Below the pieces are notes generated by a model. The model was not told where the DNA came from. It saw only the letters and a program-made list of their open reading frames with translations, and searched no databases. The position numbers and the translations under genes are program-made. Positions 3,732 to 63,397 of a stretch of DNA of 64,000 nt are shown piece after piece. Numbering within the stretch: position 1 is the first letter of the stretch; each line of letters begins with the position of its first letter. The stretch is from Lachnospiraceae bacterium (GTDB taxonomy: Bacteria; Bacillota; Clostridia; Lachnospirales; Lachnospiraceae), in the NCBI GenBank assembly GCA_024690825.1, contig JAILOK010000027.1, positions 15,377 to 79,376 of the forward strand, written 5' to 3'.

Positions 3732-3796
3732 TATTTAATTTTCTCCCTGATTTTTGTACATAACTGCAGTTATTCTTAACTACCGAAATTATTTGA

Positions 3797-4110: not shown

Positions 4111-4141
4111 ATACAGCCTTGTTCTTATTATACAGCTCTTA

Positions 4142-6775: not shown

Positions 6776-6972
6776 TCTAAGAAAATCCCCTTTCTAAGTA
6801 ATTGTGAGTATCTTTTAACATCAGTCTCCGCGCCTGCTTTCCGTGGAGCACAGTGCATAAAACTGACATCAAATCATTATACAATAAAACCGTCCGCCTT
6901 GTCTAATGAAAGCCTTTCCACTGTCTAAAAGCCGTATGATGAAAAGAGCGCATATCGTTTGACCGGATACTC

Positions 6973-8511
6973 TCAGGGCTTCATCTGCTCATCGATCCAT
7001 GCCGCCCTGGTGCTGTAAAAAGAGACGATATCATCACAGTACTCATCATAATCATCGATATCCCCGTAAATGCTCTTCTCTCCGAACTGATTGGCGTAGC
7101 CGTATAACAAGAAGTTCAAACGGCCGTCCTGCGCAAGGATCCTTCTCTGTGCTGCAAACTCATCTGTCCCCGAAAGCAGCGCCTCCCTCACTCCGCCGTT
7201 AAAATACTCATCGGCGACAGCCTTCTTAAAATCTTCATTCTTAAAAAGTTCCCTGTACCAGCCCGCATTCCGGACGCGCCAGCCTTCAGGCGTATCAAAA
7301 GACATGCCTTCCTTTTCATAGGGCGAACCGAGAGCCAGATCCATGTCCCAGACCGGCCCCATGTGCATCCTTCCGTCATTTTTCAGATAATACATATATA
7401 CGCTTCTCTGCCAGGCATCAAAATTCATCGATGCCTCTTCGATCCAGTAATATTTCGCAAGAAGACTGAGGTCACAGACATCTTTAAGCGCTGCATTTTC
7501 CGGATCTTCGATTGTATTTATGTAAACCTGCAATAAGGACAAAGCCTCTGCCATCTCTCTTTGGTCTGCATTTTCAGGATATAGCAGATCCGCCACAGGA
7601 TACTCCATTCCGTCCTCAAACCATGTCTCGGATCTGTATAATAAAGGCTGATCCTGCTCGGGCGGATCCATCTTGTAGAAATAATCGCCCTCTTTTAAGG
7701 GGATCCTGTTTTTGTCAACGGTAACCTTTGTCGTCAGCGTATACACGCCGCAGTACTTTCCGTCCACATAGAGGTTTATGTTTCTCATGCCCGGCTGGTA
7801 CGGTATTCCGGCCTCTTCGGCGATCTTATTAAAAGTAATGTTCTTTAATAGGGACACATCAAAAGCGTTTCCCACCAGATTCCAGTTTTTGTTTTTTCCC
7901 AGACCGAGCAGATCCACGGCCTTATTAAGCCGCAGCGAATAAGACTTTTTGCTGTCAGCGCCCCAGCTCGACGATCCTCTTCCCTGCAAAGATGCGTTCA
8001 GACCCGAAATATCTATTGTCCTGTCTCCCGCACATATATGCGTTATCCCCGTACATATCACGCTCTTGTCTTCCGAAGCGTTCATGGCTTCATATTCTGC
8101 CGGATCGGACGATTCAAAAAACAGGGTCGGAATGCAGTGCTCATCGAGCACGACCTGCCACGGACCAAGCATCGCGGTCTGCGTTAGATCAAAAACGCGT
8201 CTGGCAAGGAGGATCCCTCCCGCATCCCTGATATAAACCACCACCGCTTTTTTATACACTCCGGGCGGCAGCGTCAGATGAATATAACCGTCACCGAGAC
8301 TGTAGCCCTCCACATCACAGGGAATGCCGCGGTTTTCATCACCTGAAACAACAACTTCAAAATACGGAAGTTCCGCGATCATTTCATCAGTATAGCCAAG
8401 ATTCGGCCTTATAAGCCTTTCCGCGCTTATTTTTTCACACAAAAGAGCCCCTGCCATAGCAGCGGCCCCTATGATAAGTGATAATAAAAGCAAACCGGTT
8501 CTTTTCTTCAA
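6973..8511 (-). CDS. CotH-kinase-family exported protein
   Basis: N-terminal signal/anchor; QGRGSSSW, KKSYSLRL, WNLVGNAFDVSLLKN, LYVDGKYCGVY and GPVWDMDLALG are CotH-like motifs. TTG start 3 bp after the DUF4956 stop. Confidence 0.85.
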   Translation of the reverse strand: MKKRTGLLLLSLIIGAAAMAGALLCEKISAERLIRPNLGYTDEMIAELPYFEVVVSGDENRGIPCDVEGYSLGDGYIHLTLPPGVYKKAVVVYIRDAGGILLARRVFDLTQTAMLGPWQVVLDEHCIPTLFFESSDPAEYEAMNASEDKSVICTGITHICAGDRTIDISGLNASLQGRGSSSWGADSKKSYSLRLNKAVDLLGLGKNKNWNLVGNAFDVSLLKNITFNKIAEEAGIPYQPGMRNINLYVDGKYCGVYTLTTKVTVDKNRIPLKEGDYFYKMDPPEQDQPLLYRSETWFEDGMEYPVADLLYPENADQREMAEALSLLQVYINTIEDPENAALKDVCDLSLLAKYYWIEEASMNFDAWQRSVYMYYLKNDGRMHMGPVWDMDLALGSPYEKEGMSFDTPEGWRVRNAGWYRELFKNEDFKKAVADEYFNGGVREALLSGTDEFAAQRRILAQDGRLNFLLYGYANQFGEKSIYGDIDDYDEYCDDIVSFYSTRAAWIDEQMKP

Positions 8512-8514
8512 ATC

Positions 8515-9189
8515 CTAACCCCTGAATTCACCGTCATGCGCAACCAAAGACACACTGTCGACACCATTCAGTTCCCTTACCGCGCCGATCAGTCCGTCGG
8601 GATCCTTCACCCTCACCTCAAACACCGAATTTGTTCCGGACGAAGTAACATTTACGGATTTTACGCTCACTACCCGTCCGTATTGTCCGACGGCATTTCT
8701 TATCTCATCAGTTGATATCCTGCCCGTAAAACCGACAAACAGAAGCTGCCCTGTTTTTATTTCCGGGATAAACTTTAAGACCGCGACCGCGATCGTAACG
8801 CATACCGCCAGAATGACGGCGACCTTGTACAGTCCGGCTCCGCAGATGATGCCCGTTCCGATCGACCAGAAGAGAAACAGAAGATCTATCGGCTCTTTTA
8901 TTGCGGTACGGAACCTGACTATGGAAAGCGCGCCGACCATACCGAGCGAGATCACGAGGCTGCTCTGCATCGCCATGATGATCCCGGCCGTAACTATCGA
9001 CATCGCAACCATCGCTATATTGTATTCCTTTGAATAAAAGGCATTCTGTGTTACGAATCTGTATACGAAAAACAGATACAGGGCTATCAGAAATGTGATG
9101 CCGAAGGTGGTAAGTATCTGGGCGGCCGTTATATCCGCTCCCGAAAAACCGTTTAAGACGCTGTCTGTTATTATATCTTTGAAGCTCAT
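8515..9189 (-). CDS. DUF4956-family membrane protein
   Basis: SLGMVGALSIVRFRTAIKEP and LFWSIGTGIICG motifs; 4-5 TM segments plus an ACT-like C-terminus; ATGA overlap with the VTC gene. Confidence 0.88.
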   Translation of the reverse strand: MSFKDIITDSVLNGFSGADITAAQILTTFGITFLIALYLFFVYRFVTQNAFYSKEYNIAMVAMSIVTAGIIMAMQSSLVISLGMVGALSIVRFRTAIKEPIDLLFLFWSIGTGIICGAGLYKVAVILAVCVTIAVAVLKFIPEIKTGQLLFVGFTGRISTDEIRNAVGQYGRVVSVKSVNVTSSGTNSVFEVRVKDPDGLIGAVRELNGVDSVSLVAHDGEFRG

Positions 9190-11769: not shown

Positions 11770-11938
11770 TAAAGGAAAATACGAAGATATCATAAACACG
11801 GAATATCCGTTCCCATCCGGCCGCAGCCGTATGTCCATGCACGACAGGGCTGCCCAGTTTGCGCCCTTTGCCGCCCTGACAGGCCTCGGGGAAGAACTCG
11901 AGAAGGTAGCGGAGGTGACAGAGGGACGGTCCCGGTGA
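11741..11938 (+). CDS. Short YolD-like accessory protein, possibly C-terminally truncated
   Basis: KYEDII...MSMHDRAAQFAPFAALTG is the N-terminal signature of genes that follow Firmicute UmuC homologues. Overlaps the polymerase end; its last codons and stop come from a REP-like unit. Confidence 0.7.
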   Translation: MNRSADTKHNKGKYEDIINTEYPFPSGRSRMSMHDRAAQFAPFAALTGLGEELEKVAEVTEGRSR

Positions 11939-11947
11939 CAACTTTCA
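11915..11947. repeat. REP-like repeat, locus 1
   Basis: GTGACAGAGGGACGGTCCCGGTGACAACTTTC. Confidence 0.75.
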
Positions 11948-14109: not shown

Positions 14110-14226
14110 AAGCCTTTCTTCCTCCTTATTCGAACTGATATCTCAATTTTAGACATTCAGTAATTTTAAGTATATGCGTGATTTCGGAAAATACGATACC
14201 ATATTTTTCAATTTTGACAAAATATG

Positions 14227-14330
14227 GTGACAGGGGGACGGTTCTGCTGTCATCTTTTGTGTCAGGGGTGTGTCAGGGGGACGGTTCTTCTGTCATCTTT
14301 TGTGTCAGCAGAACCGTCCCTCTGTCAACT
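14227..14330. repeat. REP-like repeat, locus 2 (three half-sites)
   Basis: GACAGGGGGACGGTTCTG..., TCAGGGGGACGGTTCTT... and inverted CAGAACCGTCCCTCTGTC, abutting the ABC gene stop. Confidence 0.85.
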
Positions 14331-16064
14331 CTATATCGCGCTCAGCTGCATGCGGTAATACTTCTCGTAGAGTCCGCCCCGTTTAATAAGTTCCTTATGC
14401 GTGCCCCGTTCCATGATGCCCTCGCTGTCAAGGACGATGATCTCGTCCGCGCCGAGGATCGTGGAAAGCCTGTGGGCTATGGTGATCGTCGTACGGCCGC
14501 AGGCAAGCCTTTCCAGACTGTCCTGTATGAATCGCTCGCTCTCATTATCAAGGGCGCTTGTTGCCTCATCAAGGATAAGCACCGGCGGATTTTTCAAAAA
14601 CACTCTTGCTATCGCGATACGCTGCTTCTGCCCGCCCGATAATCTTTCGCCTCTCTCACCGACCCCGGTATCAAGTCCTTCCGGCAGATCATTTATCAGA
14701 TCCATGAGATCGGCATCCTCCGCGGCTTTTATTATATCGTCATCAGATGCCCCGGGTCTGCCGTAAGCAATATTTTCGCGTATGGTGCCGTTAAAGAGAT
14801 ATACATCCTGCTGGACTATGCCGATGAAGGAACGAAGCGACTTCTGCGTCACATCTCTTACATCTGTCCCGTCGATCTTTACGGAACCTTCGGACACATC
14901 GTAAAACCTCGGAAGGAGCGAACACAGCGTCGTCTTGCCCCCGCCTGACGGCCCTACAATGGCAACAGACTTTCCCGCATCGATATGCAGATCGACAGCC
15001 TTAAGCACTTTTTCATCGCCTTCATATGAAAAACCCACATTCTCATAATCAATGACACCCTTAACATCCCGAAGTTCTTTCGCGCCCGGTCTGTCCACGA
15101 TCTCGGGCACGGTCTCCATCACCTCGCTGAACCGTTCAAAGCCCGCAAGGCCCTTCTGGAACAGCTCGGTAAACTCCACCAGCACATTTATGGGATTGAT
15201 GAAGATATTGATATAGAGCGCATAGATGGCAAGGTCCTCCACGGAAAGAGAACCCTTTGCTATGAGAAATCCGCCGGCTGCGATCACCGCAACATACATC
15301 ATCCCTTCAAAGAAATTGTTGCCCGTGAAAAACAGAGCCATCTGTCTGTAATTGTCTTTTCTCGAATCAAGAAAAGCCAGATTGCTCTCATCGAATTTTT
15401 CCTTTTCGATCTCTTCTCCGGTAAAGGATTTGACCACGCGGATCCCGGCAAGAGTATCCTGCAGTGTTGAGTTGATCCCTGCGATCTTTTCGCGGTTATC
15501 CGTAAATGTAGCTCTCATCCGCCGGTTCTGGCTCACCGAAAAAACGATCATGCACGCAGCCACAAAAACAAGACAGAGAGTCATGGGAACATTGATCCTC
15601 ATCAGCAGTATGAAGGACCCCGCCAGCTTGATGACGGAAATAAAGATATTCTCAGGCCCGTGGTGCGCAAGCTCCGTGATATCAAAAAGGTCGGAAACGA
15701 GCTTCGACATCATCGCGCCCGTATTATGCGTATCGTAGTAGGAGAAGGAAAACGCCTCATATCTGTCAAACAGGTCCTCGCGCATCTTTGATTCCATCCG
15801 TGCGCCCATCATATGACCCTGATAGGTGACATACCATCTGCAAAGCGACCTGATCACATACAGCGCAATAAGAACAAGCGCAATGATCCCAAGCCTTGAA
15901 AGTATCTCCTGCGAAGATTCAAGAAACAAAGTCGTCCTGAGCACCCTCAGAAACTGCGGGAACATGAGATCGATGAGCGACAGTACAGTCGCGCAGAAAA
16001 GATCAAAAAGGAACACTCCGATATGCGGTTTGTAATAAGGTATAAATTTTCTGATCAGTTTCAT
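14331..16064 (-). CDS. ABC exporter, fused permease and ATPase
   Basis: Six-TM N-half; Walker A GPSGGGKT, LSGGQKQRIAIAR, LILDEATSALD, IAHRLST. Start placed at MKLIRK (16064); the ORF track extends to 16115. Confidence 0.92.
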   Translation of the reverse strand: MKLIRKFIPYYKPHIGVFLFDLFCATVLSLIDLMFPQFLRVLRTTLFLESSQEILSRLGIIALVLIALYVIRSLCRWYVTYQGHMMGARMESKMREDLFDRYEAFSFSYYDTHNTGAMMSKLVSDLFDITELAHHGPENIFISVIKLAGSFILLMRINVPMTLCLVFVAACMIVFSVSQNRRMRATFTDNREKIAGINSTLQDTLAGIRVVKSFTGEEIEKEKFDESNLAFLDSRKDNYRQMALFFTGNNFFEGMMYVAVIAAGGFLIAKGSLSVEDLAIYALYINIFINPINVLVEFTELFQKGLAGFERFSEVMETVPEIVDRPGAKELRDVKGVIDYENVGFSYEGDEKVLKAVDLHIDAGKSVAIVGPSGGGKTTLCSLLPRFYDVSEGSVKIDGTDVRDVTQKSLRSFIGIVQQDVYLFNGTIRENIAYGRPGASDDDIIKAAEDADLMDLINDLPEGLDTGVGERGERLSGGQKQRIAIARVFLKNPPVLILDEATSALDNESERFIQDSLERLACGRTTITIAHRLSTILGADEIIVLDSEGIMERGTHKELIKRGGLYEKYYRMQLSAI

Positions 16065-18304: not shown

Positions 18305-18403
18305 AAAGATGACAGGGGGACGGTTCTGGTGACACAAAAGGTGACAAAAGAACCGTCCCGGTGACACAAAAGTTGTCACCAGAACCGTCCCCCTGTCATC
18401 TTT
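18305..18403. repeat. REP-like repeat, locus 3
   Basis: Perfect 30-bp IR AAAGATGACAGGGGGACGGTTCTGGTGACA (18305-18334 / 18374-18403) with a third half-site inside; lies between divergent trpE and apt. Confidence 0.9.
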
Positions 18404-25711: not shown

Positions 25712-26809
25712 TTAATTTTTTTGATGTGCAAGTACAGACAGAAATCTGTTGATCAGCAGTATCATCACAGAAACATATATCAGGAAACATACGACGATGA
25801 CGACATAACTGACATAACCGCGGGCTCTGGTGACAAACTTGTTTACAAACATTGCGGCGTACAAAGATGCGATCCAGACAGCGGGGTTATTGTGAACAGC
25901 CATGAAAAGAAGCGAATTCCTGCCCCAGAACCGCGTGACCGGAAACGCCTTACCGCTCTTTGAAAGCGACATCACCATCCTGCACATCAGGATAATAAAA
26001 CCGGATCCCGCCACGGCGCCGATGTAATACAGCAGATAATTGTTAAGAACAAGCGAACGCAGATCCGTCGGCGAATTGAACCTGACCACCGCAATATTGA
26101 CCGCAAAAAAGATTACAGCGGTAAGAAGATGACAGGGGGACGGTTCTGCTGACAACTTTTTGGAAAAAAGATGACAGCAGAACCGTCCCCCTGTCATCTC
26201 AAAAAGATATCCGATCGAAATAAATGAGCAGGCGATGACCGGACGCAGAAGCATCACGATGATCTCGTTAAGACGCACATATACTGCCGGATTTTCCGGA
26301 ATGTATCCGCGGATCTCATTTACCCCCAGAGCCGCCATGGTCATGATGAGAACCGCGATCCACCTTTTCTTTCCGTCAAACTTTTTCATGATGAGAGCAA
26401 AGATCATCTCGGCAATAAACAGTGCAGGGAGAAACCACAGTACATTGATGCCGTAGAGACTTACGGCGTACCACAGCTGCACGAACATATCGGTTATGTT
26501 CATCGAATGACTGATAAAGACTCCGTAGAGGATGATCAGAAAATAGATCACGGTAAAAAGATAATAAGGGACCATGATCGTAGAGAATCTCTTTTTGAAA
26601 AAGTCCTTCATAGGGGGTATCTCGCCCTTCGCCGCAAAGAGCATTCCCGATATGATGAAAAACATCGGCATGTGAAAAGAAAAGATCCATTTACAGAACC
26701 CCTGAATATGGGGAGAAAGCGCAAAGATCGTATCATTTTGAAGGTGCCCGCATAATACGAGCACCATTCCTATACCTTTTGCAAGATCAATATAAGCTAC
26801 ACGTTTCAT
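25712..26809 (-). CDS. Acyltransferase-3 (OafA-like) membrane O-acyltransferase containing an in-frame REP-like element
   Basis: YIDLAKGIGMVLVLCGH, IFSFHMPMFFIISG, VLWFLPALF, WGRNSLLFMAVH. Confidence 0.88.
   Translation of the reverse strand: MKRVAYIDLAKGIGMVLVLCGHLQNDTIFALSPHIQGFCKWIFSFHMPMFFIISGMLFAAKGEIPPMKDFFKKRFSTIMVPYYLFTVIYFLIILYGVFISHSMNITDMFVQLWYAVSLYGINVLWFLPALFIAEMIFALIMKKFDGKKRWIAVLIMTMAALGVNEIRGYIPENPAVYVRLNEIIVMLLRPVIACSFISIGYLFEMTGGRFCCHLFSKKLSAEPSPCHLLTAVIFFAVNIAVVRFNSPTDLRSLVLNNYLLYYIGAVAGSGFIILMCRMVMSLSKSGKAFPVTRFWGRNSLLFMAVHNNPAVWIASLYAAMFVNKFVTRARGYVSYVVIVVCFLIYVSVMILLINRFLSVLAHQKN
26127..26199. repeat. REP-like repeat, locus 4, inside a coding sequence
   Basis: Perfect 25-bp IR AGATGACAGGGGGACGGTTCTGCTG / CAGCAGAACCGTCCCCCTGTCATCT; translated as MTGGRFCCHLFSKKLSAEPSPCHL. 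Confidence 0.9.
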
Positions 26810-40242: not shown

Positions 40243-40267
40243 AACAAAATCTCCTATGGGTGTAAGA

Positions 40268-40330
40268 GTTGTCAGGGGGACGGTTCTGTTGTCAACTTTT
40301 GTGACAGAGGGACGGTTCTGTTGTCATCTC
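40268..40330. repeat. REP-like repeat, locus 5 (two direct half-sites)
   Basis: GTCAGGGGGACGGTTCTGTTGTCAACTTTTGTGACAGAGGGACGGTTCTGTTGTCATC between the AEP transaminase and pepM. Confidence 0.85.
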
Positions 40331-40338
40331 TTACAACT

Positions 40339-41522: not shown

Positions 41523-41597
41523 AAAAGATGACAGAGGGACGGTTCTGGTGTCAACTTTTGTGTCACCAGAACCGTCCCCCTGTCACCCCTGTCATCT
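41523..41597. repeat. REP-like repeat, locus 6
   Basis: GATGACAGAGGGACGGTTCTGGTG...CACCAGAACCGTCCCCCTGTCA hairpin directly after the htpG stop. Confidence 0.88.
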
Positions 41598-43740: not shown

Positions 43741-43803
43741 ATTTTAAGACCGGCAAAGACAAAAGTCAATAAAAAATTAGCACTCAATAAAATTGAGTGC
43801 TAA
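43741..43803 (-). promoter_or_regulatory. htpG sigmaA promoter and CIRCE (HrcA operator)
   Basis: Perfect TTAGCACTC-N9-GAGTGCTAA at 43777-43803; TTGACT(43769-64)-N17-TAAAAT(43746-41). Confidence 0.92.
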
Positions 43804-43837
43804 TAAAAACCGTATCATCCTTTGTCTTTATAACATT

Positions 43838-46585
43838 TCAGGCCATGCTGAAAAACGACCTCATCTCCAGACATCCTTCCGGCGCCTTTCTGAGCCACAG
43901 ATGATCATAGACCGTTTCGCCGTCTGCGTTTCTTTCAAGGTAATACATCATCCTGTCGATCCTCTTTACCGTCTTCCTTTCCGATTTCGGATCCGCATCA
44001 TAGTTTTCCTCAAGGTAAAGGCTGGTGCAGACAAGATAATCGTCGTCTTCGTCATACATAAGTGTCTGTGTTTCAAGCCTGAGCCTTGTATGCGGTACTT
44101 CCTCATACCGATAATAAAACACGGGCGTATCTCCATCCTCGTCCACATGATCAAGCGGATGGTCGAAATAATAATCCTTTACATGCACCATATCGAGCCA
44201 CTCTGCTTTCTCATCCGTCGAAAACAGATCGTCAACCGCCACTTCAAAGAACAGCCGGTCTTTTGGATACTCTCTGATGATATCCCCGCTCGTATCAATT
44301 TCAAGGATCTTATCGGGATCATATGAAATATCTTTTTCTCCGCGCTCGATCTGAGCACCGATCCTCTTTATGGATTCCGGAGAATAATATGCTTCAAGCC
44401 TTCGCTTCAGCGGGAGATAATAAATGTTGCAGTTTTCATCCAGGATATCGATCATGTTATCGATCAGAAACATTTCAGTTACATTTATAATTTTTTCGGT
44501 GACCTTATTTTTTTTCTTATTTTTGTACTTATTCCTGTCCTGATTTTCGCCCTCACCTTCATCTTTAATCATATACCGCTCCCTGAAAAATGCGGCTGCC
44601 CTTGCAGGATCTTCATTCAGATAATCAACAAATTCGTCGGTTACGCCACCCCTGCACATGAAGATCTTTTCAAGACGCTCTCTTTCGGTTTCAAGAGCAT
44701 ATAAATATCTTCTTTCCGTCAATGTGAATTCATTCGCTCTCTTTCTTGTCAGCGCCTTCGGCTCATCCGTATATAACATGCCGATAGAATCAAGATAAGA
44801 TGCCATGTTCTTGACTACCTGAATATAGGATAACTGCTCCGCAAGCGACGGTACCGGCGAAAAATCCGAAAAGACACTTTCACCTGATGCCTTTATTCCA
44901 TGAGTCCCGGCATACAATTCAACAGCCAGTTCATATATATTTATCAGTCTGATGCTTGAAAGATTATCCTCCCTGAATTTTGTATCGGGCTCCATTTTGC
45001 AGCCAACTTTTAATCCCGATGAACCGTCATGCGTCAGATCGGTAAGATCCAGGATCTCTTCGATATCCTTGTAAAATTTACAGGTCAGGGCTTCTTCGGA
45101 TCCGGGTTTTATCTCCCATGTATCCGGATTTCCTTCGATAAACCTGTCTTTCTCCTGAAAATAGCTGCCTTTTTTATCGCGCATAAACTTTTTATAGGTA
45201 CCGGCAACCACCTTAAAGATCTCTCCGTTTTGAAACTCTATGGCATTTTTGTCGGTCTCAAAAAGATATACGGCCGTGATCTTTTCATCTTCAAACCCGA
45301 AAACACAGTCCATGGCATGAAGCTGCTGTTTTGACTCTTTTCCGTAAGAAGTCCTGTCCCAGCACTGAAGCTCATCACAGAGCATGAGAAGATATGCGAG
45401 CGGATGCTCCTCCATCTTTAAGGGGGTCTCTTTTTCGTCTATCTCTCTTAAGGAGAACTTAAACATGCTGTTATGAAGCACGATCGCAGTCATACTGTCC
45501 ATCCAGCCGTAAAACTGCTGTTTATCATATTCGTTCTCTGCTACCCTGCCGAGGATCGTATCCGTACCGAATATCTCTATCAGTTTTCTGAAGATCAAAA
45601 CACCGCTGAAAACGGCATGATCCATATAGTAATCAAAACTTTCCGGCTCGGCGGGCTTGGTCAGCAGTATATCCCTGATATATTTTTTGGGATAATGTCT
45701 CTGCTTCATTCTCCTGTAAATATGGCAGGCCAGCACATCCGCTGCAGTCAGCGAACCGATGTCTTTGATCTTCTCATTCTCCAGAAGGTTTTTTACCTGT
45801 TCCAGGCAGGTATTTTCATCAGCTCCTGAGGCTCCCAGGATTATCTCCAGATCAAACAGTTCATCCATCTGCTGATACGAAATATAGGGACTTTTTTTGA
45901 CCACCTCTCCACGCACGCGATCAGGCTTGTCATAGGTAAAATATGTTTTTATCTGTTCAAAGGGTATCTCGAAGGGATAGCCTATGTCATGAAACAGTGA
46001 TGTCACTCCCCAGAACTGCAGGAAATTCAGCGCCGCCTCATCATCGGCAACAGCGCTTTTCCCGTAATAAGTATTCCTGTATACCTCGCGATACTTAGCG
46101 TTATTGTTATATATTGCAAGTCCGATAATAAAAACATACACCGAGTGGGAATAGTGGTCTCGATGGCTCATAACAAGAGAGCTTGCCGAATTCTCATAGT
46201 TTGAAAGCATCTCAATCAGTTTCTTTGCTCTTCCGTAATCACTGACCGAAATGATATTTATCAGGGCATAGTAGACATCAAAGGCATCCTCGCGGCTGCC
46301 GGTCTCCATGAATCCGTGGACCGCATTATAAAGACAGAGGAGGTTTTCATTCTTAAAATATTTCTGACCCTCTTCGGATTTCGTGCTGTATATAGACTTG
46401 CAGTCATCGAGAATAAAGGTCAGAGCGCTTTTTTCAAGCTCGGAAACGCCCTCAAAAGAATCCCTGTGCATTTTATGATCATGGATCCTTCTTGTGATCC
46501 TGTCGGGAGAACATGAAAATAAAAACTCATCAAGCACATCTTTACGTATTTCTTTGTCTTTTTCATCTTTCGAGATCAATCCCAT
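43838..46585 (-). CDS. Large HD-domain protein (915 aa) with possible degenerate RyR-like segment and unknown acidic C-terminus
   Basis: HRDHYSHSVYV, SLFHDIGYP, MDHAVFSG, AIVLHN and LLMLCDELQCWDR metal-ligand motifs. Start MGLISK at 46585 after GGAGG. Confidence 0.75.
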   Translation of the reverse strand: MGLISKDEKDKEIRKDVLDEFLFSCSPDRITRRIHDHKMHRDSFEGVSELEKSALTFILDDCKSIYSTKSEEGQKYFKNENLLCLYNAVHGFMETGSREDAFDVYYALINIISVSDYGRAKKLIEMLSNYENSASSLVMSHRDHYSHSVYVFIIGLAIYNNNAKYREVYRNTYYGKSAVADDEAALNFLQFWGVTSLFHDIGYPFEIPFEQIKTYFTYDKPDRVRGEVVKKSPYISYQQMDELFDLEIILGASGADENTCLEQVKNLLENEKIKDIGSLTAADVLACHIYRRMKQRHYPKKYIRDILLTKPAEPESFDYYMDHAVFSGVLIFRKLIEIFGTDTILGRVAENEYDKQQFYGWMDSMTAIVLHNSMFKFSLREIDEKETPLKMEEHPLAYLLMLCDELQCWDRTSYGKESKQQLHAMDCVFGFEDEKITAVYLFETDKNAIEFQNGEIFKVVAGTYKKFMRDKKGSYFQEKDRFIEGNPDTWEIKPGSEEALTCKFYKDIEEILDLTDLTHDGSSGLKVGCKMEPDTKFREDNLSSIRLINIYELAVELYAGTHGIKASGESVFSDFSPVPSLAEQLSYIQVVKNMASYLDSIGMLYTDEPKALTRKRANEFTLTERRYLYALETERERLEKIFMCRGGVTDEFVDYLNEDPARAAAFFRERYMIKDEGEGENQDRNKYKNKKKNKVTEKIINVTEMFLIDNMIDILDENCNIYYLPLKRRLEAYYSPESIKRIGAQIERGEKDISYDPDKILEIDTSGDIIREYPKDRLFFEVAVDDLFSTDEKAEWLDMVHVKDYYFDHPLDHVDEDGDTPVFYYRYEEVPHTRLRLETQTLMYDEDDDYLVCTSLYLEENYDADPKSERKTVKRIDRMMYYLERNADGETVYDHLWLRKAPEGCLEMRSFFSMA

Positions 46586-46610: not shown

Positions 46611-47363
46611 TTATCCCTTAAGCGGAACTTCAAAAACCTTCATGTCATCAAGTCTGATGAAAAGCGCGCCGGTCTTTATTGTACTGCTGTACCCCACGGC
46701 GCAGCCTCCGTCTATATCGATAAAGTTTCCTTTTTTGTAGATCTTCAGATCATTGTACTCATAATCTCCCAGGAAATTCTGCATGATATATCCCACCGGC
46801 ACATGACCGGTGATAAAGGTGTAATCATATTTTTTGTAAATATCGCTGCCTTTTGTCTCTCCATGCCTGTATACCGAGGTCCATACTATATTCCATACCG
46901 CAGCATATTCCAGCTCATGATATTTTTTGTTCTCATATTTTGGAACATAGTAAGAGTGAGTCAGGCAGAAATCCTTACCGCCAACATTGATGGTCTTTAT
47001 CACATACCGGTCCCGCAGCCACTCAAGAAGTGCGATCCTGTCTTTTTCCTTAAGTCCTGTATATTTTTCAAAAGTTATCCTGCCGCCGTTATAATAAAGC
47101 CAAAGATCGGTATCAGCCCCGCTGCACTTATTCTTTCCGTCCGGATCAACAGAGTTTAACATCATGAATTCATGATTACCGATGAGAAGGTCCATGTTCT
47201 CATGACTCATTACATATCGAAGTATCTCTATGCCGCCTTCTCCCCTGTCCACAGCATCTCCCAGAACATACAGCATATCCGTATCCTTAAGGCCGATCCT
47301 TTTGATGCCCTCGATAAAAGCGTCATATTGTCCGTGCAGATCCGAAACCGCATATACCGACAT
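46611..47363 (-). CDS. Calcineurin-like metallophosphoesterase (lambda-PP/PphA-like Ser/Thr phosphatase family)
   Basis: SDLHG, LGDAVDRG, GNHE, THS, TGHVP, DIDGGC. Confidence 0.9.
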   Translation of the reverse strand: MSVYAVSDLHGQYDAFIEGIKRIGLKDTDMLYVLGDAVDRGEGGIEILRYVMSHENMDLLIGNHEFMMLNSVDPDGKNKCSGADTDLWLYYNGGRITFEKYTGLKEKDRIALLEWLRDRYVIKTINVGGKDFCLTHSYYVPKYENKKYHELEYAAVWNIVWTSVYRHGETKGSDIYKKYDYTFITGHVPVGYIMQNFLGDYEYNDLKIYKKGNFIDIDGGCAVGYSSTIKTGALFIRLDDMKVFEVPLKG

Positions 47364-47382
47364 ATCATTTCCTCCCTATCAA

Positions 47383-47424
47383 GGATATAATAAAAAAAGA
47401 GACAGGTCAAAAGAAACCCGTCTC
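47383..47424 (-). promoter_or_regulatory. Promoter/operator copy 1 (upstream of the phosphatase-HD unit)
   Basis: 28/30 identical to 50725-50754; 26-bp dyad GAGACAGG-N10-CCCGTCTC (47399-47424) overlapping TTGACC-N17-TATCCT. Confidence 0.7.
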
Positions 47425-47447
47425 TTAAAACCATAAAACCTGTAAGA

Positions 47448-48605
47448 TCATTTATAAAGTTCCGCTGCCTGCTTAAGCCTTAGTTTTACTTCGGTGGCAA
47501 GATCATCGGGTTTTATTATCCTGATGTTCTGACAGTACTGGACTGCCACCAACGCCATTCCGCCGAAAGTCGTTTTGCTTATCCTGACTTTGATCCATTT
47601 TTCATCCGGACTTAACTTTTCCGGAACGGATGAAAACGCTTCCTTCATATCTTCTTCTGCTGCATCGGTCATCTGAAGATTATTTTTGTCCATGCCGAAG
47701 ATATCCACCAGAGCATTGATCATGCCGTTTTTTTCATCGGTCCTGACAAGCATCGTGACCGGGATCAGCTTTCCGCCGAACATGATCGGATGAAAGGTCC
47801 TGTATGATGAACCCGTCGCAAGCTGGTTTGTCCTGTCTTTTTTTGAATTCAGGATTTCCAGGATCTTTTCAGGCACATCCTTTCTGTCCGCTTCCTTTAT
47901 TTCCACGATCCTGTCTATCCTTAAATTCACCGGAGTATCGAATTTCTCATTAAAACATGCGCAGTAATAATACCCGTTTCCCCAGACAAGCTTTAAGGGC
48001 TTAAAAAACTTCGGATACCCGCTCCTCGGATGCAGCGCGCAGTCCGTGCCGTAGTTGCAGTAGGTAATAAGGGCGATCCCCTTTGTTTTTATTATGCGGC
48101 TTAAGATCCTTATATTGTCAAGCACCCGAGCTTCGGGCTTTTTCAGGTTTGCGTCATTCGGATCGTTTGAGAGATACTTCGTGATATCGTAGGATTCCGG
48201 ACAGACGGCCATGAGCCCTTTAACGATATCTGCGATATTCTGCGTGGTGATGTAATTATAAGCCTCGATCGAATCCCTTAAAGCCAGGATCTGCTCCTTC
48301 TTAAACGGCTGTCTGTAATAAAAGTATTTTGTCTGCGACCTGCCGGTTTCAGAGCTTCTGTAGGGCACAAACGATTCTCCCGGCAGTTTGGATTTCATGA
48401 CCATCCGAACCGGCCCGTGACTGCCCAAAATTGCCAGCTCATCGAGGTTCCGGCTGACGGTCTTTTTATCAATGCCGTCTCCCGGCAGGATTGATGCGTA
48501 TTCGGAATTTATCTTTGCGGCGACCTGGGACGAAGTAAGCGGATTCTGCTCGTCACTGTGCTTTTGCAGCGTCTGCAGGATAAAGAACATATAATCTCTG
48601 GACAT
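47448..48605 (-). CDS. WYL-domain transcriptional regulator (wHTH-WYL-WCX)
   Basis: N-terminal ILQTLQKHSDEQNPLT...KKTVSRNL; WYL core KPLKLVWGNGYYY and LRIDRI; C-terminal IRIIKPDDL. Start MSRDY at 48605. Confidence 0.88.
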   Translation of the reverse strand: MSRDYMFFILQTLQKHSDEQNPLTSSQVAAKINSEYASILPGDGIDKKTVSRNLDELAILGSHGPVRMVMKSKLPGESFVPYRSSETGRSQTKYFYYRQPFKKEQILALRDSIEAYNYITTQNIADIVKGLMAVCPESYDITKYLSNDPNDANLKKPEARVLDNIRILSRIIKTKGIALITYCNYGTDCALHPRSGYPKFFKPLKLVWGNGYYYCACFNEKFDTPVNLRIDRIVEIKEADRKDVPEKILEILNSKKDRTNQLATGSSYRTFHPIMFGGKLIPVTMLVRTDEKNGMINALVDIFGMDKNNLQMTDAAEEDMKEAFSSVPEKLSPDEKWIKVRISKTTFGGMALVAVQYCQNIRIIKPDDLATEVKLRLKQAAELYK

Positions 48606-48675
48606 ATTTTTTCTCCTCAGGCGATATGATGTCACGAATCACTTCTTTCGTCAATCGATCGCCGCCGTCTGCTTA

Positions 48676-50667
48676 TTAGATACTGCCAAACCCAAAGCCT
48701 CTGCCCGCTGCGCCCCGGCCGTTCTGCATGCAGGTGCCCCTCTTTTGTCTTGCTATCGCCTTTCTTATATCGGAGGGCGTGATCTCCTGAAACTTCCGCC
48801 TGTCGTTTGCCGTAACCTTCATATCCCTCGTCCTCTGCGCCGCAAAGACGGCAGCGTTTTCCAAAAGGCTTCTGGCTTCGCGTCCGTTACCGAAATCCCT
48901 GGACTTTGAACGTTCCATGAAGTAAGCCTTTATCTCATTGTCGGCCCTGCGTCCCAGTATGAACTGCTGGTTTGCCGCAAGCCTGTGCACTATCTCCACC
49001 ATCTCATCGGGCGTGTAGGACTTGAAGTATATGGTCGAGTTGATACGGCTCTTTAATCCGGGATTGGAGTCAATGAATCTCTTCATGAGATTATCCTTTT
49101 CCTCCACATCCACTCCGCCGTAGCCTGCAAAGAGCACCAGTTTTTCGTTTCCGCGGTTTTCGATCTCGGTTATGAGGGTCGATACCGCCTCCTGCGAAAA
49201 TATGTCCCCGCCTGCAGATGAGCCGTCGCTTATCGTCAGCGAATAGGCTTCGTCGATCATTATGATATCGTTATTCTCAAAGAGGTTTTTCACCTTAGGC
49301 GCGGTGTGTCCGACATACATGCCCTTCAGGTCGGCTCCGTTTATGCAGGTGAAACGGTTTCCGGGCAGCAGATTCTCCTCCATCATCATCTGTCCCATGT
49401 ACTTTGCAACCGTGGTCTTGGCAGTTCCGGGTGCGCCCAGAAGCACATGCACATTATGGAATTCTCCCTTGTCGAGTCCGAGGTTTTCCCTTCTCCTGTA
49501 GTACTTCATCACATCAACGACCTCCCGGACTCTCTGCTTTACTTCCTCCATTCCGCAAAGACCCTTCTCGAGTTTTTTCGCGCTTGTTTCTCCTGCCGTC
49601 TTTTTGTCCACAAGATTGGCAAACCTTTTGAGCACATCAAAATCCTTTTCCTCAAGCACATCGGATCCGCTTCCCTGCTGCCTGATATAATGAAGGATCT
49701 GTCCCATCAGTATGGATTTTGCCGGATTTCTCATGCTGTTTATGCGGCCTGTGATCTTCCGGCAGGGAAAATCCTCTGCCAGGGTAAACTGCTCCCTTTC
49801 CACCCAGTTTTCAAACTGAGTGGTACGGTAATCGAGAACCTTTTCCTTATCCCATTTTCCCCGAAGATCTATGACAGCTGCGCTTTCTTCGAGCACCATC
49901 CTGGTAAATTCGGGATTTTCAAAATTGTTTGAGCTGCCATCACTGTCTTCAAACGGAAATTCATCGATCATGTCGGGTTTGATGTCGAGTACGAAAAGGT
50001 GTCTGTTTTTCCTGAAATGCATGCCGACTTCCGAACTGAAATTCGCGTAAGGGTTTCCGCAGAAGCCCGTGAAATCACCCGGATTTTCAATGACACAGAC
50101 ACTTTCCCTTGTCGCCTTATACCACCAGGGATCCCTTCTTCTTGCATTATTCTCACCCTTCATGCCAAGTCCCGCATCATCAAATACGCTGTAGAGATTT
50201 CCGCCGGTAGTGTCATTTCTGACCTCGGCTATGGTGATTATCGGGATCCTTCTGCAGTGTTCATGCCACTCTGTCACATCGTCAAGCGCAAACTCCTCCT
50301 CTTCTTCATCCGCATATTCATTTTCAAAGACATCCTCTCCGTTCTCATCCATGATCCCTCCCCCGAAAAAAAATCCGTTCTGATCGGAGGTATCCCGGGT
50401 CTCTATATCGTTATAAATGCCGGCAAGATAGGTGAGCGCCATAAATCCCAGTTCCTCATTATCGCTTCTGATCACGACAACTCTGGAGGGCTTCTTTTCA
50501 GCCTGCTCCTTAAGAGTTTCAAAAAACAGGGCACCGTTTTTCAGATCCTCCGTAAGCCTGCTTTTTTTCATTTCTTCGGGTATCTCAAGATACCTGATCA
50601 GTTCCCTTCCCCTCCCCTCAAGGAATCCGGTGCGGACATCGGGTGAAAGCAGATTTAATTTTTTCAT
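48676..50667 (-). CDS. AAA+ ATPase of the CbbX/SpoVK/EccA type with long unknown N-terminal region
   Basis: LCGMEEVKQ, Walker A GAPGTAKT, LKGMYVGHT, Walker B IMIDEAYSL, NPGLKSRI, GNGREARSL. Confidence 0.9.
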   Translation of the reverse strand: MKKLNLLSPDVRTGFLEGRGRELIRYLEIPEEMKKSRLTEDLKNGALFFETLKEQAEKKPSRVVVIRSDNEELGFMALTYLAGIYNDIETRDTSDQNGFFFGGGIMDENGEDVFENEYADEEEEEFALDDVTEWHEHCRRIPIITIAEVRNDTTGGNLYSVFDDAGLGMKGENNARRRDPWWYKATRESVCVIENPGDFTGFCGNPYANFSSEVGMHFRKNRHLFVLDIKPDMIDEFPFEDSDGSSNNFENPEFTRMVLEESAAVIDLRGKWDKEKVLDYRTTQFENWVEREQFTLAEDFPCRKITGRINSMRNPAKSILMGQILHYIRQQGSGSDVLEEKDFDVLKRFANLVDKKTAGETSAKKLEKGLCGMEEVKQRVREVVDVMKYYRRRENLGLDKGEFHNVHVLLGAPGTAKTTVAKYMGQMMMEENLLPGNRFTCINGADLKGMYVGHTAPKVKNLFENNDIIMIDEAYSLTISDGSSAGGDIFSQEAVSTLITEIENRGNEKLVLFAGYGGVDVEEKDNLMKRFIDSNPGLKSRINSTIYFKSYTPDEMVEIVHRLAANQQFILGRRADNEIKAYFMERSKSRDFGNGREARSLLENAAVFAAQRTRDMKVTANDRRKFQEITPSDIRKAIARQKRGTCMQNGRGAAGRGFGFGSI

Positions 50668-50724
50668 ACCTTACCTCCTTTTGAAATGACGCTTAAGCGT
50701 CCCGCCTGATCCTCCTTTGTTCGG

Positions 50725-50766
50725 GGATATGATAAAAAAAGACACAGGTCAAAAATGACCTATGTC
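50725..50766 (-). promoter_or_regulatory. Promoter/operator copy 2 (upstream of the AAA-WYL unit)
   Basis: GGATATGATAAAAAAAGACACAGGTCAAAA; 26-bp dyad GACACAGGTCA-AAAA-TGACCTATGTC (50741-50766) overlapping TTGACC-N17-TATCCC. Confidence 0.7.
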
Positions 50767-50795
50767 CATTTTCCGTAAATTAAATTTGTATACAG

Positions 50796-51035
50796 CTATT
50801 TTATCTCCGGCATATACCTGTCAATCCACTCCGGATCTATACCCTGATCCATCGCCTCTTTCCGATACTTCCCTGTAACCTCATCCGGTGTAGGAACATA
50901 GACTGTAGAACATCTGACTGAATTCATGAAATCATCGTTCATATTCCGTTCGCTGATCTGCAGCTGCTCGATGTATTCCTTGTAAATCCGGCATCGGTGG
51001 TATTCCAACGCCATTTCTTCAGTAATAAGGCCCAT
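50796..51035 (-). CDS. 79-aa hypothetical protein
   Basis: RBS AAGAAGAGGT before the ATG, fills an otherwise empty gap, same strand as its neighbours; no motif recognised. Confidence 0.5.
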   Translation of the reverse strand: MGLITEEMALEYHRCRIYKEYIEQLQISERNMNDDFMNSVRCSTVYVPTPDEVTGKYRKEAMDQGIDPEWIDRYMPEIK

Positions 51036-51174
51036 AGATTTAATACCTCTTCTTTAAAATCGAATATCTTGCAATCGCCAGAATAATAGCCACCACGATA
51101 ATCACAACCGTCAATACTCCTCCACCCAGCGTTGCAAGAATGGAAAATATCTTTTTTAAGCCCTGCTGTATTTC

Positions 51175-57554: not shown

Positions 57555-58634
57555 TCAAATGCCGTAGCTGTCAACATCTTCCTGTGTGATCTTTGTTGCG
57601 TCAAATCCCTTCTCATCCATGATGATGGTCTTCTCTGCTACAGTTCCGCCGCTCTCAAGAGTCTTGATAACGTCGTTGATGTAAGATGACTGGAAAGGAT
57701 TGCACTGTCCGTCATAGTTCCAGTTTCCTGCAAGGAGCTCTTCAAGTGCCCACTTGTTGCAGTCAAAGCCCATTACGATAACGTCTTTGCCTACGCCGTG
57801 AGAGATGTTAGCCTTGTCAAGTGCTGCAACGGCACCCTTAGCCATATCGTCGTTCTCTGCATAGATTACGTTGAACTTTGTTCCTGCGTCGATAACTGAC
57901 TGAACGATCTGCTGTGCATTCTCTGCATTCCACTCAGCTGTCTGCTGTGTAACGATGTTCCAGTTGCTTTCTGCTGCAACCTTTGCATCAAGAGCGCCTG
58001 AACGGCCCTTCTGAGCTGCTGAACCCATAACACCCTGGATGTGGATTACATTGTACTCATCAAGTCCCTGATCTGCAAGCCAGTTAACAGCGGTCTCGCC
58101 TTCCTTGTCCATATCGGAAACGATTGATGCTGCATAGAGGCTGGGATCTGCGTCGATTGTACGGTCGAAAAGGATAACCTGGATTCCTGCATCCTGTGCA
58201 TCCTGAAGAACTGAATCCCATCCTGATGTATCAGCTGCTGAAAGGAGAAGATAATCAACACCGTCCTGGATGAACTTCTGAGCTGCTGTGATCTGCTCAT
58301 CGTTCTTAAGGCTGTATGCGAATGATGCTTCGTATCCGTTTGCCTCTGTGAAGGTATTCTTCAGATCCTTGTCGTTAGCTGTACGATATCCGGACTCGTT
58401 GGGGTCGTTGTTGATGATACCAACCTTGATGAGGTCTCCGCTGCTCTCTGCTGCAGGTGCCTCTGCCTCTGCTGCGGGCTCCTCTGCCTCTGCTGCAGGT
58501 GCAGGCTCTTCTGCTGCGGGCTCCTCAGCTGCTGCGGGCTCTGCTGCCGGAGCGGGTGCTGCTGCTTCGCCGCAGGCCATGAGGCCAAATGCCATTGCTG
58601 ATGCAACCAATACTGCCAAAACTTTCTTCTTCAT
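57555..58634 (-). CDS. Sugar ABC substrate-binding lipoprotein (YtfQ-like) with A/E/P-rich linker
   Basis: Lipobox LMAC; NNDPNESGYR, ILFDR, YAENDDMAKG. Confidence 0.92.
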   Translation of the reverse strand: MKKKVLAVLVASAMAFGLMACGEAAAPAPAAEPAAAEEPAAEEPAPAAEAEEPAAEAEAPAAESSGDLIKVGIINNDPNESGYRTANDKDLKNTFTEANGYEASFAYSLKNDEQITAAQKFIQDGVDYLLLSAADTSGWDSVLQDAQDAGIQVILFDRTIDADPSLYAASIVSDMDKEGETAVNWLADQGLDEYNVIHIQGVMGSAAQKGRSGALDAKVAAESNWNIVTQQTAEWNAENAQQIVQSVIDAGTKFNVIYAENDDMAKGAVAALDKANISHGVGKDVIVMGFDCNKWALEELLAGNWNYDGQCNPFQSSYINDVIKTLESGGTVAEKTIIMDEKGFDATKITQEDVDSYGI

Positions 58635-61941: not shown

Positions 61942-63307
61942 AATAAAGATCATTCTGAGCGCTGAAAACATTCTCCGTGCCGGATGACTGTTCCTCTTCT
62001 TCTCTTCTCCTGCGCTCTTCTTCCTCTTCTTCTCTTCTCCTGCGTTCTTCTTCCTCTTCTTCCTCTTCTTCCCTTCTCCTTCGCTCTTCCTCTTCTTCTC
62101 TTTTCCTCTGCTCTTCTTCCTCTTCTTCTTTTCTCCTCTGCTCTTCTTCCTCTTCTTCTTTTCTCCTCTGCTCCTCTTCCTCTTCTTCTCTTCTCCTCTG
62201 CTCCTCTTCCTCTTCTTCCCTGCGTCTGCGTTCCTCTTCCTCTGCCGCCGCGGGATCTATGACCGGCTGTTCCAAAGCAGGATCAGGCACCGTGATCTCG
62301 GGCATCGCAGGCACCTCCGGCACTGCCGCAGGAGCGGTTTGGGGAGCTGCGGGGATCTTGTTTTGCTGCTTCGGCTTCACATAATGGACCTTGTATTCAC
62401 CCTCATCCGAAACCCCCGGAACCGGATGTGTCACTATATAATCAAGGATGGTCCCGTATGCATAAGCGCTGTAATGCAGTCCGTCGCCTCCGTCATACTC
62501 GGCCTTGATCGATCCCTTGTCATTTTTAAGCACCGTATTCACATCAAGATAATGAATGTGTTTGTCTTCGGCAAGCTTCATCAGGAAGGTGTTGTATTTA
62601 TCTATCCATTCATTCCTGACCTTGCCCTGATAGACACCGTAGTCATCAACAGGCCATACGGACATGATAACTATATTGCTGTTTGGTGCCCATTCGATGA
62701 TCTTGTCCACAAGATCGGTATAGGTCTCCTTGTACCTGTCCTCCGGAATGCTGTCCATGCCGTTTACACCGTAACAGACATAGACCACATCCGCTTTCTT
62801 TTCTGCCAGGTACTGCTTTACCGTATAACTTTTTCCGGAATTCTGGGTGAAGGTGGCGGTTGCGGCATCCGTATGCATCAGTCCGACCTTGGCAAGGGCA
62901 TCCTCGTCGGATATGCATTTATAATTGACCATGCCGACTGTCCTTGAATCTCCTAAGAATACGCAGTTGTTCAGATATCCGAAGCCGTTATCCTCATCAT
63001 ATTCAAGGATGCACGGAGACTCCAGCACCTTGTCCTTTTCGGCGCTTTTTATCGAGTCATTTTCAACCTTGCCGCTTAAGGCCTTTTCTTCCTCCTCCGG
63101 CTCTTCCTCTTCCTCCTCTGCCGCAGGAAAGGTTATGATCTTTACCGGCATGCCGTCAAAGGGGGATTTTTTCTTTATCCCGAGGCGGTTTACGCAGACT
63201 GTCACTATCCCGACGATGATAACGATGGCCGCAGCCACTATCGCGACCGTCACCGGGTTCATCCTGCTCTTTATGAAACTGATGATCCTAAGAAAAAAAT
63301 CTTTCAT
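61931..63307 (-). CDS. Membrane-anchored SGNH/GDSL-family hydrolase with E/R-rich C-terminal tail
   Basis: N-terminal TM; FLGDSRT (block I), CYGVN (block III), GDGLH (block V). Start MKDFF at 63307. Confidence 0.85.
   Translation of the reverse strand: MKDFFLRIISFIKSRMNPVTVAIVAAAIVIIVGIVTVCVNRLGIKKKSPFDGMPVKIITFPAAEEEEEEPEEEEKALSGKVENDSIKSAEKDKVLESPCILEYDEDNGFGYLNNCVFLGDSRTVGMVNYKCISDEDALAKVGLMHTDAATATFTQNSGKSYTVKQYLAEKKADVVYVCYGVNGMDSIPEDRYKETYTDLVDKIIEWAPNSNIVIMSVWPVDDYGVYQGKVRNEWIDKYNTFLMKLAEDKHIHYLDVNTVLKNDKGSIKAEYDGGDGLHYSAYAYGTILDYIVTHPVPGVSDEGEYKVHYVKPKQQNKIPAAPQTAPAAVPEVPAMPEITVPDPALEQPVIDPAAAEEEERRRREEEEEEQRRREEEEEEQRRKEEEEEEQRRKEEEEEEQRKREEEEERRRREEEEEEEEERRRREEEEEERRRREEEEQSSGTENVFSAQNDLYYGK
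61988..62242 (-). repeat. Low-complexity ~30-bp coding repeat encoding (R/K)3-4 E4-9 Q units
   Basis: CTCTTC-rich tract on the plus strand; about 84 consecutive residues are only E, R, K or Q. Confidence 0.9.
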
Positions 63308-63332
63308 ACGCCATCCATTATACCACACAAAA

Positions 63333-63397
63333 TGTGACAGGGGGACGGTTCCGGTGACAACTTTTGTGACAGGGGGACGGTTCTACTGTCATCTTTT
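63333..63397. repeat. REP-like repeat, locus 7 (two direct half-sites)
   Basis: GTGACAGGGGGACGGTTCCGGTGACAACTTTTGTGACAGGGGGACGGTTCTACTGTCATC. Confidence 0.85.

Follow-up and report, generated by a model that had tools for sequence, protein, structure and literature searches.

Two near-identical 30-bp sequences flank a two-gene operon in a 64,000-nucleotide (nt) stretch of DNA from a Lachnospiraceae bacterium (GenBank assembly GCA_024690825.1, contig JAILOK010000027.1, positions 15,377 to 79,376; this whole stretch is called the window here). We propose, with a probability of about two in three, that each copy is a composite of an intrinsic terminator and an operator/promoter to which the WYL regulator encoded between the copies is predicted to bind, whichever the sign of regulation. 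On the minus strand, which is the coding strand for every gene in the region, the order is a 79-amino-acid (aa) open reading frame (ORF), copy 2, an AAA+ ATPase gene, the WYL gene, copy 1, a metallophosphoesterase gene, the gene for a protein here called P931, a terminator, and htpG. A preliminary description of this DNA had taken the two copies for binding sites that define a mini-regulon of the WYL regulator. Comparison of related loci supports that reading well, with locus-specific dyads that share one core and one distance to a -10 hexamer in three WYL clades; binding itself is predicted. The parts of the two elements are as follows.

50725 to 50767, minus strand: copy 2 composite element (hairpin, T7, and -10), the top terminator-like match in 41 to 53 kb
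50740 to 50767, minus strand: copy 2 hairpin, GGACATAGGTCA tttt TGACCTGTGTCT, 12 pairs, 2 of them G·U on the sense strand
50746 to 50761, either strand: copy 2 dyad core AGGTCA-N4-TGACCT, proposed WYL operator, with its centre between 50753 and 50754
50729 to 50734, minus strand: copy 2 proposed -10, TATCAT, 11 nt past the right half-site TGACCT
47383 to 47426, minus strand: copy 1 composite element (hairpin, T7, and -10), the second-best terminator-like match in 41 to 53 kb
47397 to 47426, minus strand: copy 1 hairpin (predicted fold), AAGAGACGGGTT tctttt GACCTGTCTCTT
47404 to 47409, minus strand: copy 1 right half-site TGACCT; the left half, GGGTTT, is degenerate in the 4-nt register
47387 to 47392, minus strand: copy 1 proposed -10, TATTAT, 11 nt past TGACCT

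Two copies with one shared arm

The consensus GGATATRATAAAAAAAGASACAGGTCAAAA occurs exactly twice in the window, at 47383 to 47412 and at 50725 to 50754. No third match was found in the 64 kb with up to 3 mismatches allowed, and 100 dinucleotide-preserving shuffled controls contained none. The two 30-mers are identical at 28 of 30 positions, as had been claimed, and differ at R (A/G) and S (G/C). The dyads that had been described, with one arm diverged and the symmetry kept, are also real, with the plus-strand sequences GAGACAGGTCAAAAGAAACCCGTCTC and GACACAGGTCAAAAATGACCTATGTC; their 5′ arms are unlike between the copies yet still complementary, and the S difference is matched by a compensating change in the opposite arm. 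What the copies share is the 3′ arm, the T-run, and nine more bases, among them TATTAT or TATCAT. The minus-strand form of the 30-mer (TTTTGACCTGTsTCTTTTTTTATyATATCC) is the 3′ arm of the hairpin, then T7, then a -10-like hexamer, and TTGACC is present in both copies. A search of the window for the dyad core (GGKCA-N3-7-TGMCC) returned matches only inside genes, at chance level, and no third element.

A fixed distance from dyad to -10 in three clades

Homologous loci were compared in about 20 Lachnospiraceae genomes, in which the WYL proteins form three clades: clade A (the window, L001 to L006, and L023; 44 to 88% identity), clade B (L007 to L018; about 35% identity to clade A), and clade C (L025; 28 to 40% identity to the other clades). 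The WYL protein family is rare. A word-indexed search gave six clusters, and a scan of one genome per species gave 13 loci, all in metagenome-assembled genomes of Lachnospiraceae or Hungatella; further loci were gathered through homologs of the AAA+ protein and P931. A metagenome scan with the WYL alignment returned two short contigs only (L019 and L020) with no new downstream sites, and a scan of viral contigs returned no relatives.

Each related locus carries one to four dyads with the shared core [G/T]CA-N4-TG[C/A]. In clade A, all 11 sites, including the window's two, read RGGKCA-N4-TGMCCY or a degenerate form of it, and in 10 of the 11 a TAnnnT hexamer lies exactly 11 nt past the 6-nt right half-site (TATTAT, TATCAT, TATGCT, TACCAT, TATACT, TATTAT, TATAAT twice, TATCCT, and TATTCT; binomial p, ∼1e-11 to 1e-18). 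The 11 clade B loci contain 20 exact GCAATATTGC palindromes, against 0.19 expected, with TAnnnT at +14 in 16 of the 20 on the gene strand and in none on the other strand (binomial p, ∼1e-25). Written as GCA-ATAT-TGC, the clade B site has a core equal to the clade A GCA-N4-TGC, and in both clades 17 nt separate the T of TG from the -10. The -10 register is likewise kept in all four sites of clade C ([G/T]CA-wwww-TGCGCA-N11-TATnnT, in L025), two of which are near-identical hairpin-plus-T-run copies of ∼38 nt that flank the WYL-containing block, as in the window. The geometry of the copy 2 core thus agrees with 11 clade A, 16 clade B, and 4 clade C sites. Genes preceded by such sites include AAA+ homologs, the WYL operon itself, the P931 homolog of L015, and genes for DUF2779, YdjM, PcfJ, and ClpP proteins; L001 has one site ahead of its WYL-containing operon and another between WYL and ClpP-AAA+.

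In the window, the hexamers that fit TAnnnT are TATTAT at 47392 to 47387 and TATCAT at 50734 to 50729, and neither has a -35 hexamer 16 to 18 nt upstream; at 17 nt stand TTCTTT and CATTTT. The preliminary description had the dyads overlap a TTGACC -35. TTGACC is indeed present in both copies, but it stands only 12 nt from the TATyAT -10, the sole -10 register conserved across loci, and we rejected it as a -35 and read it as a half-site. Pairing TTGACC at 17 nt with TATCCT or TATCCC was also rejected, these being poor -10 sequences (that of copy 2 lacks the final T) in a pairing that is not conserved in related sites. If the -10 is placed at -12 to -7, the right half-site occupies -30 to -25 and the dyad is centred near -31.5. 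This is the layout of DriD- and PafBC-type promoters, with a factor site in the -35 position, a fixed distance to the -10, and no -35.

The operator variant changes with the recognition helix of the regulator's predicted winged helix-turn-helix (wHTH): DKKTVSRNL accompanies GGTCA/TGACC (the window and L003), DRSTVxRIL accompanies GGGCA/TGCCC, and SxDTVKRTL accompanies GCAATATTGC. With three groups, this covariation of dyad and helix is suggestive only. It nevertheless bears on the idea that the dyad is an operator for a different protein, or that the WYL domain binds the hairpin as RNA or single-stranded DNA (ssDNA). WYL domains do bind single-stranded nucleic acids, and recognition of the dyad by this one is a prediction. 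However, the WYL gene is the sole DNA-binding gene common to all site-bearing loci, the dyad variant tracks its recognition helix, and the clade B sites form no hairpins, so we give such a different ligand or protein very little credence.

The proposed terminator half

Both copies have the anatomy of intrinsic terminators, with a 12-pair hairpin containing 5 GC pairs followed by T7, and they are the two best terminator-like sites in 41 to 53 kb. The copy 2 hairpin begins 29 nt past the stop codon of the 79-aa ORF, and that of copy 1 begins 22 nt past the WYL stop codon; the composite elements lie ∼60 nt ahead of the AAA+ start codon (copy 2) and ∼24 nt ahead of the metallophosphatase start codon (copy 1). 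Each hairpin is more stable on the sense strand than on the antisense strand (−18.4 versus −12.6 kcal/mol for the copy 2 hairpin alone, and −17.4 versus −11.3 kcal/mol for copy 1). Across the eight clade A hairpin sites, departures from Watson-Crick pairing number 10, every one of them a G·U on the sense strand, against zero on the antisense strand. The stability of each sense hairpin matches that of its antisense counterpart or exceeds it by up to 6 kcal/mol, and the T-run is confined to sites with a perfect hairpin. The G·U asymmetry, the sense stability, and the T-run distribution argue that hairpin-type sites, including both window copies, have also been selected as terminators, with termination predicted. 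It had been considered earlier that copy 1 might act only as a terminator, its dyad being followed by T7, while copy 2 is inactive; the T7 hairpin of copy 1 stands, but copy 2 has T7 too.

Half-site and spacing are also kept where there is no hairpin and no T-run, at the clade A sites of L002, L022 (at 2280), and L023 (at 190), and where there is no stable hairpin or T-run, at one clade C site (L025 at 4180) and at all clade B sites; L002 has a separate terminator just upstream of its hairpin-less site. This argues for a function at the DNA level that is independent of termination, that is, for a DNA signal separate from the terminator.

The same observations weigh on a simpler explanation, by which the elements are intrinsic terminators and nothing else, alike through duplication or gene conversion, with a dyad that no protein reads and downstream genes served by read-through or other promoters. 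Their rank as the top two terminator-like matches, their position 22 to 29 nt past a stop codon, the U7, and the fact that every asymmetry is a G·U on the sense strand all fit such an explanation. The elements resemble intrinsic terminators also in having a 12-pair GC-rich stem and a 4- to 6-nt loop. However, it leaves the retention of half-site and spacing at the hairpin-less sites without a role, the similarity of the two copies continues past the T-run through the -10 hexamer, and the hairpin sequence is conserved, with paired changes, between loci with only 46% protein identity (GGACATAGGTCA versus GGACATAGGGCA). Ordinary terminators do not show that; they are unconserved between distant relatives and have no -10 hexamer at a fixed distance. 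We consider the terminator-only explanation improbable. A search of Rfam returned sub-threshold chance matches only.

Strain comparison

In four related strains from public metagenomes, there are zero substitutions in 47380 to 47429 and in 50660 to 50779, against ∼20 in the adjacent phosphatase coding sequence (47178 to 47322, ∼150 nt). Beyond 50779, a point 12 nt outside the hairpin of copy 2, the same strains diverge fully, and in another strain the phosphatase gene stands behind a different sequence from 47376 on. No contig that joins the two repeats or lacks the segment between them was found in the four related metagenomes. Conservation of the elements, divergence of their flanks, and the absence of joined repeats indicate that the elements behave as conserved module boundaries and not as scars of deletion or insertion.

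These data also concern the possibility of a mobile AAA+/WYL cassette, with the 30-bp direct repeats as its junction scars or as sites of recombination. The repeats do enclose a 3.3-kb two-gene segment, strain divergence is complete just outside them (at 50779/50790 and at 47376), and island gene content is shuffled between genomes. Against this, the region has no integrase or transposase domain, the viral contigs held no relatives, and the elements number one to four per locus, always in promoter geometry. At the most they would act as module boundaries, by virtue of being terminator-promoter units. The cassette-scar model was rejected, with no joined form seen in four runs, and recombination sites of any kind seem highly unlikely to us here.

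A 38-nt stretch of copy 1 (47389 to 47426) has an 84% match on an abundant (∼100×), unrelated contig with different flanks in runs X1 to X4. The match was left out of the argument; a terminator or operator of similar type, from some other organism, may account for it.

The WYL regulator

The 385-aa regulator matches the PADLOC WYL model (2.7e-10, residues 162 to 381), and its Pfam WYL score of 17.6 bits falls under the 21.8 cut-off. Sequence searches of the PDB with the protein and with an 18-sequence profile returned nothing, and a fold search was therefore needed. In the AlphaFold2 (AF2) model, with a mean predicted local distance difference test (pLDDT) of 62 and values of 64 to 88 in the WYL and C-terminal parts, strands at residues 177 to 239 (pLDDT, 70 to 87) fit the Sm-like beta barrel of a WYL domain. 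Residues 280 to 385 (pLDDT, 64 to 88) align to the C-domains of DriD (7tzv and 9cu3) and PafBC, as a WCX domain would. Three N-terminal helices (5 to 16, 25 to 35, and 47 to 60) are modelled at pLDDT 55 to 75; Pfam HTH families do not match them, and full-length Foldseek alignments of ∼400 columns to DriD, PafBC, and BrxR cover them. All 32 Foldseek matches in the PDB with E<1e-3 are WYL regulators, headed by PafBC and DriD and followed by a CRISPR-associated WYL protein, BrxR, and CapW, and the margin of PafBC and DriD over BrxR and CapW is small. As modelled, the regulator is a WYL-WCX protein with a probable N-terminal wHTH.

Proposed mechanism and sign of regulation

In the mechanism we propose, the GC-rich 12-bp hairpin and U7 would stop the upstream transcript at the RNA level, ending that of the 79-aa ORF at copy 2 and that of the AAA+/WYL operon at copy 1. 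In duplex DNA, a WYL dimer would sit on the dyad AGGTCA-N4-TGACCT, over the -35 region of a -10-only promoter. Copy 2 would drive AAA+ and WYL, making the regulator autoregulated, and copy 1 would drive the operon of the metallophosphatase and the HD-like P931, while the terminator half would insulate each operon against read-through. A TTGACG-17-CATCAT sequence in the AAA-WYL spacer may supply basal WYL expression. In this scheme the anatomy of the elements, their conservation, and the family-wide geometry are direct observations. Binding, the sign of regulation, and the ligand are what we infer.

As to sign, we lean toward activation of the promoters in response to a nucleic-acid signal, for example ssDNA, by analogy with DriD and PafBC, and hold repression to be the less probable of the two. 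Activation is favoured because the -10 spacing is exact to the base pair, the -35 is absent, and DriD and PafBC are the closest structures. Closest in layout is DriD of Caulobacter crescentus, whose promoters (didA, bapE, and CCNA_03891) have no -35 and place the DriD site where a -35 would be, its distance to the -10 being constant (PMC13004042). It has the wHTH-WYL-WCX architecture that is predicted here and is among the top structural matches, whereas sequence identity is ∼15%, with no HMM-level match to any PDB chain, and the present case differs in its Firmicute host, dyad sequence, terminator overlap, and AAA+ and HD-like targets; activation here is a proposal. The actinobacterial regulators PafBC and SiwR are also WYL activators whose site replaces or overlaps the -35 region, and PafBC is the top Foldseek match; they differ in phylum and regulon, and their promoters have no terminator overlap. 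PafBC is a heterodimer or a fusion and has an asymmetric site. It reprograms RNA polymerase via sigma adaptation, and SiwR binds a 19-bp imperfect palindrome between the -10 and -35 (PMC10693628).

The chief competitor to activation is a BrxR/CapW-type repressor that covers the -35 region and is released by a signal. It needs the same operator and promoter and takes its share of the probability given above for the composite elements. BrxR and CapW repress adjacent islands. The BrxR island of pEFER has two boxes, R-BOX1 and R-BOX2 (10- to 11-bp inverted repeats with a 4- to 5-bp spacer), with one arm conserved and nearly identical, the other diverged, and autoregulation (PMC9122601), much like the arrangement here, where autoregulation is proposed. 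Most clade B sites have a TGn-extended -10 and would need no activator, and the TIR and PD-(D/E)XK neighbours of WYL in L016 suggest a defence context. However, exact -10 spacing at ∼30 sites in three clades is a trait of activator promoters, repressors usually tolerating variable positions; a -35 and an extended -10 are both missing from the window promoters; and the best structural matches, by the small margin noted, are the activators PafBC and DriD. The known repressors also differ in detail. BrxR boxes lie downstream of the -10, where they repress by steric block, have no described terminator role, and are accompanied by BREX and BrxU, whereas no known defence system was recognised by PADLOC here. 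CapW, a structural match, has the wHTH-WYL-WCX architecture predicted here, binds a palindrome in the promoter of the neighbouring system, and senses ssDNA; it differs in being a repressor with a divergent gene layout, and CBASS genes are absent here. Taken by itself, we regard repression of this type as possible, though doubtful.

Several points weigh against our interpretation of the elements as regulated promoters, and in particular as activated ones. The sites in related loci are not phylogenetically independent, and part of the 28/30 identity of the two copies could come from recent duplication or gene conversion and not from selection. The left half-site of copy 1 (GGGTTT) is degenerate in the 4-nt register; its ortholog in L003 retains a perfect GGGTCA-atta-TGACCT. 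Lacking both a -35 and a TG extension of the -10, the window promoters might have very little activity or none, and no RNA-seq run containing the stretch was found. Many clade B sites, through their TGn-extended -10, fit a repressor acting on a self-sufficient promoter, and the WYL proteins known from defence islands, BrxR and CapW, are repressors. The AF2 model of the regulator is of moderate confidence (mean pLDDT, 62).

That WYL factors bind dyads at the promoters of their neighbours is an established general principle; what is new here, in detail, is the operator model for this WYL family, the systematic fusion with terminators, and the target genes. If the reading of the copies as terminator-operator/promoter composites is true, it would provide an operator model, [G/T]CA-N4-TG[C/A] plus 11 nt plus a -10, for a WYL family, so far uncharacterised, in Lachnospiraceae of the gut and rumen. 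It would also define a target set (AAA+ and the P931 family, with ClpP, PcfJ, DUF2779, and YdjM in other genomes), offer a clean case from nature in which a single short sequence doubles as terminator and regulated promoter, and permit a direct test of whether Firmicute WYL factors are DriD/PafBC-like activators or BrxR/CapW-like repressors. More speculatively, and with a low expectation on our part, the family might be a master activator of an undescribed stress- or phage-triggered Lachnospiraceae regulon with CbbX-like AAA+ and HD-like effectors, in which the fused cassettes would allow modules to be swapped under the regulator.

Genes of the locus

The genes around the two elements, with the remaining signals, are as follows.

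50796 to 51035, minus strand: 79-aa ORF, ending upstream of copy 2
48676 to 50667, minus strand: AAA+ ATPase, 663 aa, first gene of the operon behind copy 2
48626 to 48654, minus strand: candidate separate WYL promoter in the AAA-WYL spacer (TTGACG, 17 nt, TG-extended CATCAT), from a consensus scan only
47448 to 48605, minus strand: WYL regulator, 385 aa, second gene of the operon behind copy 2
46611 to 47363, minus strand: metallophosphoesterase, 250 aa, ApaH/PrpE-type, first gene behind copy 1
43838 to 46585, minus strand: P931, 915 aa from the ATG at 46585, starting 25 nt past the phosphatase gene
43776 to 43804, minus strand: unrelated terminator-like hairpin and T-run closing the second operon, followed by htpG in gene order

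The AAA+ protein has Pfam AAA and AAA_lid_6 matches, a match to CbbX (3syk) at 7e-33, and NCBIfam support. By these sequence matches its C-terminal module is CbbX/SpoVK/EccA-like, and its 360-aa N-terminal region has no assignment. Homologs of it adjoin WYL in 12 loci. P931 has >2000 homologs, typically ∼650 aa long and in a few cases with a RyR domain. Sequence searches of Pfam, NCBIfam, PADLOC, and the PDB gave zero matches for it, and a fold search of its confident AF2 model (pLDDT, 85; predicted template modelling score, 0.88) gave no PDB match with E<0.2. Its invariant residues (H144/H147, H199-D200, D322-H323, H371, and D404) suggest an HD phosphohydrolase, an assignment resting on these H, HD, and D residues only. 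P931 homologs lie within ∼6 kb of WYL in six loci (L008, L009, L015, L016, L018, and L025), in L015 directly behind a dyad. The earlier proposal that the four genes form one system is supported for three of them: AAA+, WYL, and P931 genes co-occur in other genomes, whereas no metallophosphatase homolog was found among the related WYL loci, where the 79-aa ORF is likewise unconserved. PADLOC recognised no known defence system at the locus, with weak matches for the AAA domain (TRIP13 and IetA) and none for the phosphatase or P931, and effector genes of BREX, CBASS, and other defence systems are not found there.

Two segments of the region differ as blocks in related strains. The AAA-WYL spacer with the candidate WYL promoter (48610 to 48692) is replaced by 108 unrelated letters, and 51040 to 51173 is replaced by 48 unrelated letters. 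The strains concerned are those of runs X1, X2, and X9, the spacer promoter being replaced in X1 and X2. The AAA+ 5′ leader holds a perfect 14-bp palindrome, GACGCTTAAGCGTC, at 50688 to 50701, between copy 2 and the ribosome-binding site; in L025 a similar sequence, GTGTCTTAAGACAC, lies upstream of the P931 homolog.

Further variation was seen among the related loci. In clade B, the L016 locus (3765 to 8673) has a WYL-AAA+-P931-like block with genes for a TIR-domain protein and a PD-(D/E)XK nuclease behind it, a hint of a defence island; L016 is the only locus with such neighbours. In L021 (250 to 8438) and L024 (170 to 8320), an AAA+ homolog (57% identity) is the last gene of a ClpP-455aa-DUF2201-AAA-AAA operon without any WYL gene within reach, and a different palindrome, GACAAATTTGTC, lies upstream of ClpP. 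L005 has tandem GATAAGGTAATAAT-type repeats at 3600 to 3690, right downstream of WYL, where a dyad is usual.

Other repeats in the window

The window also contains 14 copies of a REP-like family of intergenic palindromes, each ∼33 nt long (TGACAGGGGGACGGTTCTGCTGTCA) and often paired side by side in inverted orientation, at 11913 to 11945, 14225 to 14332, 18307 to 18403, 26127 to 26201, 40267 to 40331, 41526 to 41591, and 63332 to 63396. The same repeat occurs in L022, from another metagenome, near 1300 and 4320. Four tandem 14-nt units (TTTGTTAAATAACT / TAAGATAGGTAA and so on) at 3841 to 3924 have an iteron-like look. CT-rich repeats (period, 8 to 30 nt) and repeats rich in GCTGC, at 61956 to 62258 and 58446 to 58565, probably encode low-complexity E/K- or A/E-rich segments of minus-strand proteins.

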